Origin: an uncultured Chloroflexia bacterium
GTDB taxonomy: Bacteria; Chloroflexota; Limnocylindria; Limnocylindrales; CSP1-4
Reading direction: 5' to 3'
NCBI GenBank assembly: GCA_963749735.1
Contig: CAVVNZ010000003.1
Span: 96,300 to 160,299, forward strand
Length of the DNA: 64,000 bases
The notes beneath the pieces were generated by a model. It saw nothing but the letters and a program-made list of their open reading frames with translations, was not told where the DNA came from and made no database searches. Within the stretch, counting starts at the first letter, position 1, and each line of letters starts with the position of its first letter. This document shows, piece after piece, positions 7,398 through 27,128 of this stretch. Both the position numbers and the translations under genes were made by a program.

Positions 7398-9152
7398 TCA
7401 CGACGACATCTTGCCGAGTCGTCGTGACAGCTCAGGTGGCGCGATGACGATGAGCTGGGTGGTGGCGCGGGTCAGGCCGACGTAGAGGAGCTGGTCGAGT
7501 CGCTCGCCGGTCTCGGGCAGCTCGCACAGGATGACGACCTCGCGCTCGAGGCCCTTGAACCGGCGGATCGTCTCGAACCGGACGACGTCGCCGGGCTCGT
7601 CGGGGACCTCGTCGGCCGGCAGGCGCAGGGATCGGCCGGCGTCGTCGATCGCGCCGTTCCAGAGGACCTGGTTGCCGAAGGTCCGAGCGCGCCAGACAGC
7701 GCTGTCGGCCGCGGACCGACCGGAAAGCACCACCATCTCCCACGGCCGGACCCCTTCCTCGACCGTCAGGCGATGGAGCTCGAGGCGTACGGCCTCGACC
7801 GTGGCGTCGCCGGGTGCCGCCACGATCAATCGCGGCGCGTGACCGCCCGGTGCGAGGGCGAGCGGCTTGCCGGGGCCGTGGTAGAAGCGGGCCGCGAGCT
7901 CGCTCACGGGCGCCGGGCAGCGGTAGTCGTGGAACAGCTCGAGCTGCGGAAGGCCGAGCTCGGCGACGCGGTCGTCACGGAACAGCGCCTGGCCGGGATC
8001 GTGGAAGACCCACAGGACGTCGTGCTCGGGGTCCTCGAGGAGGAACTGGAGTGACTCGAGCCACGCCAGCTCGAAGTCCTGGCCCTCGTCGACGACGATC
8101 GCGTGGAACCGCTCATCCGGGAGCGCGTCGATGGCGGCATACAGCGCTGCCGGCAGCGTCTCGTCCCACCACTCCCGCGGCGGTTCGTCCGGCCTGGCCG
8201 CCAGGACGCCGGCCCGTTCGCCGAGCGTCTCGCACAGGCGGTGGAAGGTCGAGACGTGCAGACGCTCGGCCGTTCCGGGGTCGCGGGCGGTCGCCTCTTC
8301 GACCTCGTGCAGGATCGACGTCGCCAGCGCCTGGTTGAAACAGACGAACAGGGTCCGAAAGCCCTCGCGGGCGAACCTGAGCGCCTTCTCGACGGCGACG
8401 ATCGACTTGCCGCTGCCGGCCGGCCCGATGACCTCCGCCCGTCGCACGTTCCGAGCGAAGTCGAGCGTTCGCCGCTGCTCCTGGGAGGCCCCGATCAGGC
8501 GGGCGCGGTCATCCTCGACATCGTGGCGGAGGAGTCGGTGCAGCGTGACGGTGGGTGCGAGGTAGTCGTCGACCAGCCGCATGCCCGCTCGGTCCCAGCG
8601 AGTGGCCGCGGCTGCCGTCACCGACCCAGTACCCGTACGCCCGGTCAGTGGCCGCTCGGGCAGCCTCGGCGGTCGCGATCGCGTCGGCGTCGAGCACGAT
8701 CTCGCGCGGGGCGTCCGGTCCGAGGAGGGCGTGCCCGCGCGGGAGACTCGCCAGGTCGACCGTCGGAAACGCGACGGCATGACCAGCTCGCGGCTCGTCG
8801 TGCGCCGGCCAATCCGGGAGCGCCATGAGCGCACGCTTCAGGTCGTGCTTGGCGTCCTCCGCCTGCTTGAAGGGCGAACGCCGAAGGTCGTAGCGGACCG
8901 ATCGACCATCGACCGCTCGCGTCTCGGCTGCGGCTCGCCGTCCTTGACCTCGACGACGAGCAGCCCGAGCTCCGGGTGGACGATGACCAGGTCCGCCTCA
9001 CCGTCGTGAGCGGGCCCGCCGGGCCGGGACTTCGCGCACCAGCGGGCGTTCGGGTAGATCCGGTAGTCGGGCGGGAGGGCCGCTCGGAGCGCGTCGTGGA
9101 CGTGCCGTTCGGCGGCCTGTCCGCGCGTCCCCTCCCCTGGTCCCACTCGCAC
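7398..9152 (-). CDS. NERD (nuclease-related domain) plus UvrD/SF1-like helicase fusion protein, frameshifted in the 8560-8900 region
   Basis: GTG at 9152 has a GGAGG Shine-Dalgarno. The NERD motif is GEADLVIVHPELGLLVVEVKDG. The helicase carries Walker A VIGPAGSGKS, Walker B IVVDEGQDF, and C-terminal UvrD_C-like FKGLEREVVIL and YVGLTRATTQLIVI. The middle segment (track ORF 8509..8826) is in a second frame. Confidence 0.75.
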
Positions 9153-9235
9153 CCCCTAGGTGCCTCCACCATAGCGCGGCCGCGTTGGGGTTTCTCGGTG
9201 TGAACGCGACCCGGAGATGCGAGAGACCGACGGGG

Positions 9236-21741: not shown

Positions 21742-22551
21742 TCAGCCGGCGGTCGACGGCTCGATGGCGGGGTGGTCGGATGCGCCGTTCTTGGCGATGG
21801 TGGTCATCGTCGTCGGGATGGCGGCCTCACCCTCCACCTTGTCGAAATGCGCGCTGCGCTCCACGCGCTGCTTGATGCCGAGCATCTGGCGGCGCTCCAT
21901 GACGAAGACGCCGAAGCCGAGCGTCGGCATGAGCACCTTCGTTCCCGGGTTGCCCTTGCCGAACCAGCCGCGGGTCCGCTCGATCAGGCGGGTCCGTCCG
22001 GGACCGGCCGGCTCGAGCACGAACGCCCAGCTGACCTTGAACTCCTGCGGCGAGGCCGCACCGAGGAAGTTGCCCGACGCCGCCAGGCCGGGGGTCTCCG
22101 TTGCGGAGATCGACTCGGCGGGCTTCTTCTGCCAGCCCTCGACGAGGGCGGTGTCGAGGTAGACGACGAGCGCCTTGTTCGGGTCGAGGACCTTGACCTC
22201 GAAGCCGCCGTCCTCGTGGGTCGGGAGCTGGTCGCCCACCTCGAGCTTCTGCAGCTCGGGCAGGATCCGGTCGGCGCTCAAGCCCTTCATGTCGAGGCGG
22301 TCGTAGCTATACCAGCCGGCGCGGCCGTAGCCCATCTGGACGAGCCAGGGCCAGATGCTCTCGGGCGGAGCGTCGATGGTGATGCCGCGGGTCAGCAGGT
22401 TGGTGCCGTCGGGGACGAGCTCGTCGCCGGGAAGCGCCTTGTCCTGCTCGGCGGGGTCGACACCCCACGTCGATGACCATTCGTTGATCCTGCGATAGGC
22501 GCCCCAGGCCGCGAATGCGAGGGTCGAGCCGACGACGATGCGCTTGAGCAT
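21742..22551 (-). CDS. Membrane-anchored SRPBCC/START-like fold protein (hypothetical)
   Basis: Reading from MLKRIVVGSTLAFAAWGAY (TM) into a ~240-aa soluble domain. Intact ORF. Confidence 0.55.
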   Translation of the reverse strand: MLKRIVVGSTLAFAAWGAYRRINEWSSTWGVDPAEQDKALPGDELVPDGTNLLTRGITIDAPPESIWPWLVQMGYGRAGWYSYDRLDMKGLSADRILPELQKLEVGDQLPTHEDGGFEVKVLDPNKALVVYLDTALVEGWQKKPAESISATETPGLAASGNFLGAASPQEFKVSWAFVLEPAGPGRTRLIERTRGWFGKGNPGTKVLMPTLGFGVFVMERRQMLGIKQRVERSAHFDKVEGEAAIPTTMTTIAKNGASDHPAIEPSTAG

Positions 22552-22620
22552 GGTGAACGTACCTCCACGGTCGAGGGTACCGACGCTCGGCAAGCCGTGG
22601 AAGGGCCGATCGGCCCGATC

Positions 22621-23304
22621 TCAGGCGCCGTCCTCGCCGGTGAGGTCCTTGTCCTCCATCTCCCAGGCATGATCGAGGGTGTGGAAGCCCGAATGGCGGA
22701 TGAGGAACGGGATCGTCCACGACCGCATGGGCTTGGTGTATTCCCCGGCGTTATACGCACGCATCGCCGCGACGTAGCTCTCGCGGTGCTGCTTCAGCCC
22801 TTCCGGGCTGAGCGCGGCCTCCTCCGGGATCCGCAGGCCGACCTGCTTCGCGAAGTCCTCGCTCTCGGTGCGGATGGTGTGGCGGATGATCCGGTCGCGG
22901 TCGCGTCCTCCCCCGCGCGGTCCCTTGCGCATCACCGGCGAGACGCGGGCCGCGACGCCATCGAAGAACGCCCAGCAGGCTCGGAGGAGGGTGATGGCGC
23001 GATCGAAGTCCGGCTCGGCCATCGGCCCGTGCTCGGTCGACGAGGGGGCGAAGGAGATGCCCCAGAAGTCGACCGAACCGGTCCCGACCCTTTCCTCGAC
23101 GATCTCGAGGGGTCCCGCGGCGTCGAACTCAGGTGTCATCCCGGCGAGATCCGCGATCGGCCGGTAGCGCTCGCGATAGGCCTCGAGCGTCTCGACGGCG
23201 AGCTCCCCGCTCTTCGCGCCGCGGCTCCAACCCGGCCAGTCGAGGCTGAACGCCACCGACCGCTTGTCCTTGGGTCCGTGTTCGATGACCGTGCGGACGG
23301 GCAT
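22621..23304 (-). CDS. Hypothetical protein (227 aa; His-rich C-terminal motif HSGFHTLDHAWEMED, possibly a DinB-like helical bundle)
   Basis: Intact ORF. Its promoter region carries three copies of the palindromic motif listed below. Confidence 0.55.
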   Translation of the reverse strand: MPVRTVIEHGPKDKRSVAFSLDWPGWSRGAKSGELAVETLEAYRERYRPIADLAGMTPEFDAAGPLEIVEERVGTGSVDFWGISFAPSSTEHGPMAEPDFDRAITLLRACWAFFDGVAARVSPVMRKGPRGGGRDRDRIIRHTIRTESEDFAKQVGLRIPEEAALSPEGLKQHRESYVAAMRAYNAGEYTKPMRSWTIPFLIRHSGFHTLDHAWEMEDKDLTGEDGA

Positions 23305-23326
23305 GGCTCAGTATCGCATGGGGGTC

Positions 23327-23457
23327 GGTGCGTGATGCGACTCGGTGCATTCGCGTGGGCGTTGCGCTGGCCGCCGGGGTCCTGGTTCCGTGCGTGATGC
23401 GACTCGGTGCATCGCTTGGGCGGGCGTTTGGCGCTCAAGGTGATGCGACGGCCGCAT
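23327..23457. repeat. Three tandem copies of the palindromic motif GTGATGCG-N6-CGCATCAC (23327-23349, 23389-23411, 23439-23457); first two identical over 23 nt (GTGCGTGATGCGACTCGGTGCAT)
   Basis: Read directly from the sequence. Located between the K+ channel 3' end and the 22621..23304 gene start. Confidence 0.7.
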
Positions 23458-23473
23458 CGGCGGTTGGGGGCCC

Positions 23474-24340
23474 TCAGCTCCCTCCGTTACCGAGTGACGC
23501 TCGAAGCGCCGCGATCTCCGCCCGTTGGCCGGCCATCTCGGCCCGAAGGCCCGCCAGCTCCTCGGCGATCGAGCCGGTCGTCGACGTGGCGGCAAGTCCA
23601 GCCTCGGTCTCGGGCTGCAACTCAGGCTGGGACTGGGGCGTCTCCTCGGCCGCAGGCTCGTCGGAGGTCGCCGGCGAAACCAGCAGGCTAGCCAGGATGC
23701 TGGCGAGCGCGCCGATGATCCCGATGCCCGCGAACATGACGAAGACCGCCGTGATCCGCCCGAGCGTGGTCACCGGGTAGTAGTCGCCGTAACCGACGGT
23801 CGTGATCGTGACGATGCCCCACCAGATGGCGTCGCCGCCGGTCGTGATGTTCGCGCCGGGCGAACGGCTCTCCTCCTGAAGGACGAGGATGCTCGCGACC
23901 GACAGCACCATCCCCGCGAGCAGGATCGTGATGAACGTCGCGTACTGGCTGCGGTTCCTGAGCACGTCGAGGACGAGGTCCTTGCCCGCCTGCCCGCCGA
24001 GTAGGCGGGTGATCCGGGTCAGCCGGCTCAGGCGTGCGAGACGCAGCAGGGCCGTGAGCGGGAGGAAGCCAAGGCTCGGGATCGATCCGAGCAGGTCCAG
24101 CCAGCCCCGCTGGGTGATGAAGTACGCACGCCTGGGCTTCGCGCCGCTGAGATTGAAGGCGAAGTCGATCAGGAAGATGACGCAAATGGCGTTGTCGTAC
24201 AGGTTGACCAGGTGATGCGTGTCGTCGTCGAGCGGAAGGATGAGCAGGACCATCAGGGCCAGCGAGTAGATGGTCAGGACCAGGATGAAGATGTTGTAGG
24301 CATTACCGTGCCGACGGAGCACCGGTGCCTTGGCAGTCAT
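23474..24340 (-). CDS. Voltage-gated potassium channel (6TM, KvAP-like)
   Basis: ATG at 24340. The S4 voltage sensor reads RLARLSRLTRITRLL. The pore helix and selectivity filter read TITTVGYGDYYP. Confidence 0.85.
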   Translation of the reverse strand: MTAKAPVLRRHGNAYNIFILVLTIYSLALMVLLILPLDDDTHHLVNLYDNAICVIFLIDFAFNLSGAKPRRAYFITQRGWLDLLGSIPSLGFLPLTALLRLARLSRLTRITRLLGGQAGKDLVLDVLRNRSQYATFITILLAGMVLSVASILVLQEESRSPGANITTGGDAIWWGIVTITTVGYGDYYPVTTLGRITAVFVMFAGIGIIGALASILASLLVSPATSDEPAAEETPQSQPELQPETEAGLAATSTTGSIAEELAGLRAEMAGQRAEIAALRASLGNGGS

Positions 24341-24426
24341 GACCGCTGATCCTCCTCGCGCGACGTGCCCCGGTCGGGACGAGCCCATCCTAGAGACTCG
24401 GCAGACCGCCCACGTCACCGACGCGG

Positions 24427-24550
24427 GTGATGCGCCGAGCCGCATCACGGAGAGGCCGAACCGGCCGGTGCCATCGATGCACCGAGTCGCATCACGGGCA
24501 GAGGTCCACCCGCCGGCGCCACGACCACCCCGATGCGCCGAGTCGCATCA
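24427..24550. repeat. Three further copies of the same palindrome in the K+ channel promoter region (24427-24448 perfect GTGATGCGCCGAGCCGCATCAC; 24476-24495; 24532-24550)
   Basis: Reverse-complement and identical matches to the left-flank copies, read from the sequence. Confidence 0.7.
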
Positions 24551-24588
24551 GCGGGACGCCGGCCCCCGCCGGACGCCGGCCCCGCCCC

Positions 24589-25818
24589 CTAATCCAGCTT
24601 GCCGGCTCGGAAGTCGGTGATCAGCGCCGTGAATTCGGGCACGCCCTGCTCGTAGCCGATCGCCCAGAAGCCGACACCGGCCAGGCCGCGCGCGGTGGCC
24701 AGCCGGACCTTGGGCGTCAGCGTCGCGGGTGAGTCGACGTAGATCGCCAGCCAGCCGGCCGGGCTCGGGTCGGCGGTCGGCGCGCCGCTCTTGTCGACCG
24801 GCATCGTGTAGACCTCGACCTGCTCGATCTCGTCAAGGACCGGCACGATCGTCGGGTCCTGGAGGATGTCGAGGTGGTCGCTCGGGAACCAGGCGACGCC
24901 CTTGCCGGTCTGCGCCGCGGCCACCTCGGGTCCGGTCACCGGCCAGGCCATCCCGTACAGCGGCAGGCCCAGGATCGTCTTCTCCACCGGCACCCCGAGC
25001 GCCTCGTACAGGTCCAGCGACCAGTTGAGGTCCTTCTCGCTCCCGTCGCGGCGGGCGATCGGCGCCGAGGCTCCCGGCGCCGACCCGGAGTAGTGGTAGT
25101 CGTAGCCCATCAGGAAGATGCGGTCGGCCCCGGCCGCACTCGCGGCGGCGGCCATCTCGGCGCCATCGGCGTTGGCGGGCGTGGCGACGGACACCTGGGC
25201 CTCGGGCTGTGCGGCCCGCAGCGCCGTCCGGAGCCGACCGACGAACGCCCCGTAGGCCTGGACGAGGCTGCCGTCGAGCTGCTCGACATCCACATTGACG
25301 CCGTCGGTCTTCGTCTGCCCGACGAGCGTGACCAGGTCCTTGATGACCGCGTCCTGGATCTTGAGCGAGCCGAACAGCCGCTTGTTCTTGGTCGCACCGA
25401 AGCTGCTGAACACCAGCTCGACGCGGGTCCCGCGGTCGTGCGCCTCGGAGATCATCTGCTGACCGAGCGGTCCGGTGATCTTGACGTAGCCCTTCCCAGC
25501 GGTGTCGATCGCCCCGGTCCGCAGGTTCGAGACGGAGAACAGGGCGAGCGTCGTCAGGTTCGTCGCCGCGAGATGGGCGGCGATCCGCTCGTCCATCTCC
25601 CAGTACGGCACGAACCCGAAGACCTCGTGCCCGGGCTTCGGTCGTTGAGTGGCGAAGGGGGTCGGACTGGTGGAGCCGAGTGCCGCCCCGGAGCTCGCGG
25701 AGCCACCCGATGGGGTCCCGGCCGTCGGGCCGATCACGCCGCCGAAAAGCAGCCCACCGAGGACGCCGACGACCGCGAGCGTACCGAGCGCGGCGAGCAG
25801 CCTGCGACGCTGGGTCAT
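24589..25818 (-). CDS. Glycoside hydrolase family 18 (chitinase-like) protein, secreted or membrane-anchored
   Basis: Intact 409-aa ORF with an N-terminal signal/anchor. The GH18 catalytic motif is DGVNVDVEQ (DxxDxDxE). Also present are GFVPYW, MGYDYH, LPLYGMAW and GFWAIG. Confidence 0.85.
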   Translation of the reverse strand: MTQRRRLLAALGTLAVVGVLGGLLFGGVIGPTAGTPSGGSASSGAALGSTSPTPFATQRPKPGHEVFGFVPYWEMDERIAAHLAATNLTTLALFSVSNLRTGAIDTAGKGYVKITGPLGQQMISEAHDRGTRVELVFSSFGATKNKRLFGSLKIQDAVIKDLVTLVGQTKTDGVNVDVEQLDGSLVQAYGAFVGRLRTALRAAQPEAQVSVATPANADGAEMAAAASAAGADRIFLMGYDYHYSGSAPGASAPIARRDGSEKDLNWSLDLYEALGVPVEKTILGLPLYGMAWPVTGPEVAAAQTGKGVAWFPSDHLDILQDPTIVPVLDEIEQVEVYTMPVDKSGAPTADPSPAGWLAIYVDSPATLTPKVRLATARGLAGVGFWAIGYEQGVPEFTALITDFRAGKLD

Positions 25819-25897
25819 CGGCCAAGGGTACCCCGGGGCCGCGAAACGGCCGCGAAACAGCCGCGAGACGCCTCGCGGACGCCGGGAAGACGGCTCC

Positions 25898-27098
25898 TCA
25901 GCGGAGGCGGCGGATCGGGCCGGCCACGGCGACCAGCAGGCTCATCATCACGAGCAGCGCTCCGGCCACGGCCTGCGCCGCCGGCGCGCCGAAGGCCGCC
26001 GCGGCCGCGCCGAGACCGATGAACCCGATCGGCCCGAAGCCGACCCCGAAGACCCAGACACCCATCGACGCTCCGCGCTCATGGTCATCGGTCGCGTGCT
26101 GCAGCAGCGTCTGAGCGAGCGTGTCCACGCCGGCCGCCACCGCGCCGATGACGAACATGAACACGAGCGACACCGGGAACAGCCCGCTCAGGGCGAACCC
26201 GATCAGCAGCAGGCCGAACGCGGCGCCCAGGGCCAGGAGGAGTCGCCCGGACCGGGTGGCGACCCCGACCCGTGTCAGCCGGATGAGCCCGATCACAGCC
26301 CCGATCGATCGCCCGGCGACGAGGACGCCCAGCCCCGCCGCGCCGACGCCGAGCACGTCACGGGCGAAGGTCGGCGTGAGGGTCATGCTCGAGAATCCGA
26401 GCACCTCGGTCACGATGACCATGGCCAGGATCCAGCGGACTTCGCGGTTCCGTCCGAGCAGCGTCAGGGCGGTCCGCGCGCTCGGCGTGAGGCGGTCGAC
26501 GACGAGGCTCCCGGTCGTGCGGGTCCGCACCGAGGACGATCGCGGCGACGAGCCAGCAGGCGGTCGCGACGCCGAACCCGGATCCGAGCCCGCCGGCGGC
26601 GATCAGGATGCCGCCGAGGATCGCCCCGGCCGAGCCGAACAACTGGACCCCGAGGTTGGACATCGCGAGGCCGTTGGTCGCCCGGTCCTTGCCGACCAGG
26701 TCGTAGACGTAGGCCTGCGTCGCGGACGTTCGGGCGGTGTCGATCGTCCCGAACACGAAGCTGAAGAACAGGATCGCCGGGACCCCGAGGTACCCGCCGA
26801 ACGCTAGACCGGCGACGATGAGCCCGGTCGCCGCGGCCGCCAGGTTGACGGCGCGGATGAGGCTCCGGCGGTCGACCCGGTCGCTGGCCGCCCCGAGCGG
26901 GATACCGAGCAGGAGCGAGGGCGCCATGCGGACGGTCATCGTCAGCGCGACCCCGAGCGGCGAGGCGGTGAGCTCGAGCGACGTCCACGACAGGGCGATC
27001 TGGCTGATCGAGGCGGCCAGGCCGGCCAGCGACAGGCTGACCCACAACGCCGGGAACCCGGCGATGCCGAAGATGGCCGGGAGCCTGGCCGCGATCAC
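25898..27098 (-). CDS. MFS transporter, frame disruption near 26500
   Basis: The N-terminal half is track ORF 26358..27098 and the C-terminal half is 25898..26530. There are 12 TM-like hydrophobic segments. Confidence 0.7.
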
Positions 27099-27128
27099 CG
27101 CGAAACGATAGCCCGCCGCGGATGTGGA

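Follow-up and report, generated by a model that had tools for sequence, protein, structure and literature searches.

The 64-kb window analysed here, that is, the whole stretch of 64,000 nucleotides from contig CAVVNZ010000003.1 of an uncultured Chloroflexia bacterium, contains a gene for a voltage-gated-type K+ channel (288 aa; 23474-24340, minus strand; Pfam Ion_trans/Ion_trans_2) that is enclosed by two inverted blocks of a short palindromic sequence. The six sites that make up these blocks probably belong to a lineage-restricted family of hairpin repeats of the repetitive extragenic palindrome (REP) type, carried by a subclade of Limnocylindrales, and not to a dedicated operator. The family is dispersed, its neighbours are functionally unrelated and form no coherent gene set, and copies also lie inside coding sequence (CDS). 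Units are added to and lost from its blocks through tandem duplication of 44-75-nt periods; its core is more constant than 4-fold degenerate sites, the spacers between cores are not, and one strand folds better than the other by means of G-T pairs. The channel gene is a neighbour of the repeat family and no component of it.

The six sites and the repeat unit

A sequence-only reading of the window had placed three palindromes 3′ of the channel gene and three 5′ of it, and all six were recovered there, the former on the plus strand and the latter on the minus strand, so that the left-hand units face rightwards, the right-hand ones leftwards and the two blocks are mutually inverted (coordinates follow the numbering of the window, to which the expected counts for these sites also refer). 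Five of the sites are strong copies and one is a variant copy of a 20-nt unit, as scored with an nhmmer profile built solely from the copies in other genomes. On the left, unit L1 (GTGATGCGACTCGGTGCATT, 23332-23351; E 1e-5) is followed with a 62-nt period by its tandem copy L2 (23394-23413; E 1.1e-8), which is the exact consensus 20-mer GTGATGCGACTCGGTGCATC, and by the variant unit GTGATGCGACGGCCGCATC (23440-23458; E 1.3), which is separated by 16 nt from the stop codon of the channel and combines the GT tag and the GATGC/GCATC arms with a 5-nt loop unlike that of the family. On the right, R1 (24429-24448; E 2.4e-8) is nearest to the channel gene, R2 (24476-24495; E 1.8e-9) is again the exact consensus 20-mer and a 20/20 reverse complement of the left units, and R3 (CTGATGCGACTCGGCGCATC, 24532-24551; E 6e-7) ends the block 38 nt from the stop codon of a GH18 glycosidase gene. 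Direct reading of the sequence agrees with the earlier description that two left 23-mers are identical; the exact reverse complementarity reported for one right copy extends over 20 nt (23331-23350 vs. 24477-24496) and not over 23. R1 becomes the perfect 8-6-8 dyad that had been described once 24427-24428 is added, and 24427-24448, read on the plus strand, is the sole perfect match to the symmetric pattern as it was then written.

Within the window the motif is confined to this locus, as had been supposed. The 20-mer GTGATGCGACTCGGTGCATC has five matches at ≤3 mismatches where 0.01 were expected, and the rest of the 64 kb has none; hairpins of the form GATGC-N6-10-GCATC number six in the window, five of them at this locus, against 0.74 expected; and the outside-copy profile, run over the 64 kb, recovered the five good copies at E 1e-5 to 2e-9 and the sixth site marginally (E 1.3), with no further match. 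A degenerate rightward unit at about 24390-24408 was considered and dropped, since it overlaps a conserved −10 region and is missed by the profile. The variant hairpin was likewise considered as a degenerate inverted partner of its neighbours and rejected in that role: its GT tag stands on the 5′ side in four of five orthologues, which places it in direct orientation. Between the last right-hand unit and the GH18 stop codon there is also a 16-nt direct repeat (GCGGGACGCCGGCCCC/GCCGGACGCCGGCCCC; 24551-24583) with a 17-nt period.

The consensus of the unit, GTGATGCG-RCTCGG-YGCATC, was obtained from 101 stacked copies from the window and related loci, and comprises a GT, a stem of 6-7 bp (GATGCG/YGCATC) and a conserved hexaloop (RCTCGG). 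Positions 1-8 read GTGATGCG, the right arm reads Y-G-C-A-T-C, and each position of the central R-C-T-C-G-G except the R is 92-99% conserved. The frequencies at the 5′ end (G 0.84, T 0.89, G 0.99, A 1.00) give a tag GTGA, of which the GA belongs to the stem. The bases that complete the dyad, A21 and C22, occur in only about one third of the copies. The centre is thus conserved and asymmetric, which gives the unit a direction and replaces the symmetric 8-6-8 dyad of the earlier description by an oriented unit. Variant units retain the GATGC/GCATC arms and have other loops of 7-9 nt between them.

Folding of 70 non-redundant copies with RNAalifold yields a 7-bp consensus stem and a hexaloop, in which the outer stem pair is U-G in 43 copies, U-A in 18 and C-G in 5, whereas G-C accounts for 54 of the innermost pairs and G-U for 13. 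The wobble pairs of the motif strand are A-C mismatches on the complementary strand, and the stability of the motif strand exceeds that of its reverse complement by 3.75 kcal/mol (p 5e-12; 44 of 55 arrays). C and T prevail in the 12 nt that precede the unit (A 5%) and G in the 12 nt that follow it; pairing between the two flanks is stronger than between random genomic flanks (−20.5 vs. −16.3 kcal/mol, p 1e-15). Specific covariation, examined by setting the 5′ flank of one copy against the 3′ flank of a second copy, did not reach significance (p 0.06), in a control that the generic complementarity of C/T with G confounds. Taken together, the conserved asymmetric loop, the variable arm spacing and the preference for one strand argue for a single-stranded hairpin, unlike a symmetric duplex operator. 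The targets of ANTAR proteins have hexaloops with A1 and G4; a two-hairpin target of this kind was rejected on the loop, as RCUCGG has C at position 4.

Copies in other genomes

The pattern TGATGCGRCTCGGYGCATC was scanned over one genome per species (185,579 species) and matched 69 loci, about 40 of which come from at least 11 species-level metagenome-assembled genomes (MAGs) of Chloroflexota, often with 2-7 copies per locus; the names of homologues place the motif-bearing clade in Candidatus Limnocylindrales. The remaining matches, about 30, are singles in unrelated phyla and are accounted for by chance, since base composition leads to an expectation of about 2.7e-11 per position, about 2e-4 per 4-Mb high-GC genome and tens over the whole collection. 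A metagenome scan for tandem pairs returned four loci, all from the same clade and including an orthologue of the channel locus (L074; loci outside the window carry three-digit numbers), a scan of viral contigs returned two single matches, at chance level, and a literature search for the repeat sequence returned unrelated primers only. The gathered Chloroflexota loci hold 114 copies at ≤3 mismatches, with about 6-10 unrelated loci per genome; in the long-read MAG CAVUSI01, whose three contigs amount to at least 3.25 Mb, the exact pattern occurs at six loci distributed over all three, and these loci have about 22 copies at ≤3 mismatches. Regional clustering on long contigs was not significant (two matches within 120 kb on a 1.97-Mb contig, p about 0.12). 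The sequence-only reading had named hundreds of copies, scattered irrespective of promoters, as the mark of a generic REP-like element; the copies are indeed dispersed irrespective of promoters, and there are tens of them per genome, not hundreds.

Copies take three forms: singletons, head-to-head dimers with their GT ends outward, and tandem blocks in which 2-4 units recur every 44-75 nt. The spacing within head-to-head dimers ranges from 1 nt, in an abutting inverted pair that forms a perfect 40-nt palindrome (L036), to 1.8 kb, and the longest inverted spacings (0.4-1.8 kb) have a gene in between. Orientation switches from plus to minus 23 times and from minus to plus 3 times, all 3 of the latter being junctions between complete dimers; the head-to-head arrangement holds in 10 of 10 independent locus groups, and there are no tail-to-tail dimers. 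Spacers are near identical inside one block and unrelated between loci; a CRISPR array was rejected because the spacers within a block are near-identical tandem duplicates, and an integron attC reading was rejected on the orientation. Doublets of about 90-110 nt that resemble REP doublets forming hairpins (REPINs) occur at L040 (419-588 and 2734-2806; three copies in one MAG) and L046 (363-435), and have a conserved 33-nt spacer (ATCTCGGGATCTSAGC...) between two inverted units, with GC-rich sequences on the outside that complement each other; that of L046 is one copy at the orthologous extracytoplasmic function (ECF) sigma factor locus of another MAG. The blocks in the window are unlike these doublets in form.

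Pfam annotation of the flanking open reading frames (ORFs) gave neighbours of unrelated function: the K+ channel with GH1 and GH18; Ku and LigD; a small XRE-type helix-turn-helix (HTH) gene convergent with DinB; aldehyde dehydrogenases beside NMT1, MMPL or a membrane protein; an ECF sigma factor with a response regulator; and M20 peptidase/AzlC, ABC transporters and a PaaD-like protein. The sequence-only reading had proposed a genome-wide scan as a way to define a regulon; among these neighbours no coherent one is apparent. Blocks occupy divergent spacers (L029, L036, L040), convergent spacers devoid of promoters (M20/AzlC, XRE/DinB) and co-directional spacers. A minority of copies lies inside genes: in the CO_deh_flav_C domain of a CoxM-like protein (L015 1672, L041 1691, L050 3149), in the PALP domain of a pyridoxal phosphate (PLP) enzyme (L042 6472, L057 2204), between the UvrB-interaction and RID domains of Mfd (L039 181, L068 521) and in the tail of an RsmI-like methylase (L006 7361, L016 6541). 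The six verified CDS copies all run in the sense direction, five of them in the frame D-A-T/A-R-R-I; the embedded core of 18-20 nt is far above chance.

The LigD of three species (L031 3650-3900, L037 4370-4640 and L060 6950-6640, minus strand) has an in-frame insert of 45-65 aa in the N-terminal loop of its phosphoesterase domain, between the conserved motifs KRDFxKTPEP and FVVGRHRATRLHYD. The insert is a sense unit followed by a variant hairpin (GDATRRIEG...DADGRIGG), the frame is kept across differing insert lengths, and the 45-65 residues are missing from homologues of 70-77% identity. Three further units, in antisense, occupy the linker from ligase to polymerase, which is an in-frame fusion in L060 and is interrupted by a stop or frame change in L031 and L037.

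The orientation of copies relative to genes bears on whether the units act as RNA, that is, as 3′-end stabilisers or terminators and as structures in 5′ untranslated regions, with sense units at the 5′ end and antisense units at the 3′ end permitting the two ends of a transcript to pair. Such a role, which published REPs have been proposed to have (PMC3733652), would agree with G-U-compatible stems on one strand, with the sense orientation of the CDS copies, with the position of both window blocks just downstream of a stop codon (those of GH18 and the channel) and with the finding that upstream units are sense and downstream units antisense in three of three bracketed genes. It is an unlikely explanation of the family all the same. 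Blocks just 3′ of a gene are about evenly divided relative to that gene, with five sense and four antisense, which slightly favours single-stranded DNA (ssDNA) over mRNA as the selected form, and blocks are also found in the divergent spacers listed above. An intrinsic terminator has a GC-rich hairpin and a U-tract; here the U-tract is missing and G predominates in the 3′ flank, and a scan of 22400-25000 for consensus promoters and terminators found no terminator-like site and no sigma-70 site. RNA folds of whole spacers were not significantly better than those of shuffled sequences (z −1.7 and −1.2), and Rfam, searched at E≤10 over 22000-26000, gave three chance-level matches only (E 2.7-9.5) and thus no family match.

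Copies that sit in native coding sequence with no change in its length recall a different class of element. Sites such as parS and matS are known within native coding sequence without length change, and plasmid centromeres such as sopC are made of tandem units that each have a palindromic core. A chromosome-organising or structural protein could bind the units in the manner of parS/ParB, matS/MatP or gyrase and integration host factor (IHF) at bacterial interspersed mosaic elements (BIMEs), in which case the copies would not be relics of mobile elements; tens of sites per genome that are kept across species, and tandem 44-75-nt units with a palindromic core, would suit such a protein. This is nevertheless very improbable, given the asymmetric loop, the favoured strand and variable arm spacing, the rapid turnover of units, the lack of clear regional clustering on long contigs and a head-to-head geometry without counterpart in those systems.

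The channel locus and its orthologues

Five orthologous channel loci (the window, L017, L023, L049 and L074) share the arrangement of two inverted blocks, with 1-4 units per side. The copy orthologous to L2 is present in L017, L023, L049 and L074, the variant unit is kept in five of five loci, and R1 is kept in five. Among the five channel genes, 4-fold sites have pairwise identities of 64-78% and 43% of them are invariant across all five, compared with 17 of 20 positions of the orthologous left core (Fisher p 5e-4 vs. 4-fold sites) and 13 of 26 positions of the adjacent spacer (not significant). The core is held constant by selection or homogenisation; a window-specific variant, ACTCGGT, is present in both blocks and suggests exchange between copies. 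Beyond these five loci, relatives whose channel is 75-82% identical (L081-L083) or whose homologue of the next protein is 83-86% identical (L076-L080, L084, L085) are free of the motif and have different neighbouring genes. The blocks are a gain of one subclade and not an ancestral control region of either gene.

Conservation also guides the placement of promoters. A putative −10 element of the channel, TAGGAT (24387-24392, minus strand), lies between block R and the gene, with a Shine-Dalgarno sequence, GAGGAGGA (24350-24357, minus strand), downstream of it. TAGGAT, TACCAT or TACGAT is found at the same place in REP-bearing orthologues and in the REP-free relatives L081-L083, and GAGGAGG is kept in both groups too, so that the channel promoter would be situated between block R and the gene. 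On the other side, the next gene (22621-23304, minus strand) encodes a conserved protein of 227 aa without a Pfam family and starts 27 nt from L1. The hexamer GATACT (23310-23315) stands 5 nt before its ATG, and there is no Shine-Dalgarno sequence, which suggests a leaderless transcript; the GATACTGAGCC-ATG leader is also kept in relatives without the repeats.

Promoters so placed could speak for an operator array, the interpretation that the sequence-only reading had put forward, in which a dimeric transcription factor would control the channel and the 227-aa gene within a small stress or DNA-damage regulon. R1 ends about 36 nt upstream of the putative channel −10 and L1 overlaps the expected −35 position of the putative promoter of the 227-aa gene; as in known arrays of dimeric repressors, inverted half-sites (GATGC/GCATC) occur several times per promoter region and a regulator gene is nearby in some relatives. 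One candidate regulator would be the small HTH protein of the XRE type; repeat blocks stand on both sides of its own gene in L032, L054 and L075. The modest copy number, the constrained core, the retention of sites at orthologous loci in several species and the presence of LigD/Ku, DinB and Mfd among the loci could be read in the same way. An operator is nonetheless improbable here. The centre RCTCGG is conserved as well as asymmetric, the half-sites are N7 to N9 apart in variant units, and the G-T asymmetry favours one strand; sites lie irrespective of promoters, in promoter-less convergent spacers and inside protein domains; the functions of the neighbours add up to no regulon, and the number of units changes fast between species. 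Absence from orthologous promoters had been named in advance as evidence against an operator, and the motif is indeed absent upstream of the channel and 227-aa orthologues in wider Limnocylindrales relatives, which keep the channel −10 and Shine-Dalgarno sequence.

Upstream of the channel, the GH18 gene (24589-25818, minus strand; Pfam) abuts block R with its 3′ end. In four related genomes a GH1 gene of about 1.4 kb lies between GH18 and block R (L017 1784-3194, L023 452-1918, L049 4493-5882), and it is missing in the window (24552-24592), the breakpoint of this one-gene indel being exactly the outer edge of block R. Such a breakpoint would be in line with a non-autonomous element with the inverted blocks as its ends, the channel as cargo and a transposase supplied in trans, comparable to multi-site transposon ends or to a REPtron with cargo, and the sequence-only reading had offered a small element that captured the channel gene as its alternative. 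Strict head-to-head placement with 1-4 units on either side of a single gene, seen independently in three groups (channel, XRE and the LigD phosphoesterase-ligase part), and the differing neighbourhoods of channel orthologues across the order are in keeping with it. LigD tells against it: there the left unit follows the conserved N-terminal KRDFxKTPEP inside an ORF that is continuous across the unit, so that the bracketed DNA cannot be an inserted cassette. The channel unit occupies the same place in each of the five REP-bearing genomes, the number of units changes through local tandem duplication, and many dimers and blocks are free of cargo. No target-site duplication was found, and look-ups of 227-aa and channel homologues in search of an empty site led to other neighbourhoods and to no informative empty junction; the repeats do not in these respects behave as a miniature inverted-repeat transposable element (MITE) or other non-autonomous transposon. 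A cargo element is therefore scarcely probable. The kind of sequence had been recognised correctly, in that the organisation is that of mobile-element-type, REP- or REPIN-like repeats, and it is the capture of the channel gene that is not supported; the comparison of synteny shows the channel between the blocks in all five REP-bearing loci.

Some further features of the window were recorded. The channel has a 100% identical protein (P0121) in the database, encoded on a contig of 167,897 bp, and its C-terminal coding region contains three copies of a 21-nt tandem repeat (23498-23561) that specify the heptad-like series AEIAALR/AEMAGQR/AEELAGLR and probably encode a coiled-coil tail. Two overlapping ORFs in different frames (25901-26602 and 26361-27128, minus strand) correspond to the C- and N-terminal halves of one MFS_3/MFS_1 transporter, which indicates a frameshifted gene or an assembly error. 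At 7401-9155 (minus strand) an ORF with a NERD domain lies directly upstream of an ORF for a UvrD-like helicase, which could mean a single gene that is split or else a defence-type pair.

Relation to known repeat families

Published REPs have stems of 6-9 bp with G-T stem pairs and form head-to-head, tail-to-tail and head-to-tail dimers 1-100 bp apart (PMC3733652); their clusters consist of units reiterated together with flanking DNA, and intragenic REPs are enriched in repair genes (PMC3733652; PMC6006769). In Thermomicrobium roseum, a member of the same phylum, REPs occur in blocks at few loci, within small GC-rich palindromes (PMC3733652; PMC6006769). The family described here has much in common with REPs and BIMEs so defined: it is a dispersed, mostly extragenic short stem-loop with a conserved tag at one foot and G-T pairs in the stem, its copies are singletons, head-to-head dimers and clusters, they occupy all types of intergenic spacer, and a minority is in frame within genes, notably repair genes. 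It differs in its strongly conserved hexaloop and in a head-to-head relation that extends across whole genes, over 0.4-1.8 kb.

With REPINs and their REP-associated tyrosine transposases (RAYTs; PMC3116915) the family shares vertical persistence at orthologous positions and conservation of the repeat amid neutral divergence, and its inverted doublets at L040 and L046 may likewise fold into one long hairpin; its population is far smaller, and most of its copies stand outside doublets with short spacers. The Rickettsia palindromic elements (RPEs) are 100-150 bp long, have a CGTC tag and form in-frame palindromic inserts that are translated as an extra peptide (cited in PMC3733652). The insert of 45-65 extra residues in LigD is a translated in-frame repeat of the same sort, whereas most copies of the present family are intergenic and some CDS copies add no length. 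Mycobacterial interspersed repetitive units (MIRUs), a class of variable number tandem repeat (VNTR), are reportedly tandem intergenic units of 40-100 bp at a few dozen loci, with a copy number that varies between strains; they are said to have one orientation relative to the operon and no conserved hairpin, and some arrays to be in frame with flanking genes. The tandem blocks are alike, and an asymmetric hairpin and a head-to-head rule are not known from MIRUs or from plasmid centromeres such as sopC; a MIRU-type VNTR was rejected, as the arrangement is head-to-head and not operon-directed and only 18 of the 37 tandem periods are multiples of three.

In the REP/RAYT logic, the tag at the hairpin foot serves as a guide for a Y1 enzyme (PMC6006769). 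By analogy, the core of the present unit would be recognised as a single-stranded hairpin, in ssDNA or possibly in RNA, by a trans-acting host protein, which could be a RAYT-like enzyme of the HUH/Y1 type, and this same protein would have seeded the copies and would maintain them. That a RAYT-like enzyme is responsible is put forward with considerably less confidence than the REP-type assignment itself. At the locus in the window the blocks would be bystanders in the two spacers around the channel gene, block R in the 3′ flank of GH18 upstream of the channel promoter and the other block in the 3′ flank of the channel, abutting the promoter of the next gene. Local side effects may follow from these positions, either as 3′-end hairpins on the GH18 and channel transcripts or as mild modification of the promoters.

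Several observations weigh against a REP-type family. No RAYT or other cognate protein was found, in a tblastn search with three Y1 transposase queries that covered about 0.75 Mb of gathered sequence. Copies keep their positions from species to species, and the search for an empty site recovered none, which lends mobility no support. The 5′ tag GTGA is not GTAG/GYRG or CGTC; it is close to the listed variants of the GTAG/CGTC superfamilies (GYAG, GYRG, GTRG, GTMG, GTGG; PMC3733652) and yet is none of them. The copy number is low for the class, and units stand most often in head-to-tail tandem blocks, a form that is rare in published REP families. At several CDS copies native residues are replaced while the protein keeps its length, which simple insertion fails to explain. 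Finally, the three cases in which a gene is bracketed (channel, LigD and XRE) are all head-to-head over 0.4-1.8 kb, an outcome with p about 1/64 if the blocks were independent, and this hints at a constraint that the label REP leaves unexplained.

The last two of these observations, CDS copies without a change in length and head-to-head bracketing in three of three cases, keep alive a minority reading in which blocks interact across the gene that they enclose. The geometry itself would then be functional: a hairpin-specific protein or the transcript would pair inward-pointing blocks across single genes (the K+ channel, the LigD phosphoesterase-ligase part and the XRE regulator), and the resulting DNA loop, cruciform or RNA panhandle would insulate or co-regulate them, linking genes for non-homologous end joining, translesion synthesis and transcription-coupled repair (Ku-LigD, DinB and Mfd, respectively) with the channel in a lineage-specific stress circuit. 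Shared recognition of the hairpin would, if this were so, explain the sense-oriented core in native coding sequence. Only a small probability is given to such a circuit, about that of the operator array, and a REP-type family is still preferred.

For the channel, the assignment of the six sites to a REP-type family removes a false lead, as nothing at this locus points to a channel-specific regulator. For the Limnocylindrales, an abundant and uncultured soil lineage, it documents a compact REP-like family with an unusual set of traits: it has no canonical tag, it has few copies and is yet kept constant across species, it is amplified in tandem blocks, its arrangement is always head-to-head, it is translated in frame in LigD and Mfd is among the genes that carry it. 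For practical purposes the blocks are markers of a VNTR-like kind, and they are likely hot spots of misassembly or rearrangement in these MAGs. If a cognate hairpin-binding enzyme were found, so small a family would offer a tractable case for the persistence of REPs and for their association with repair genes.

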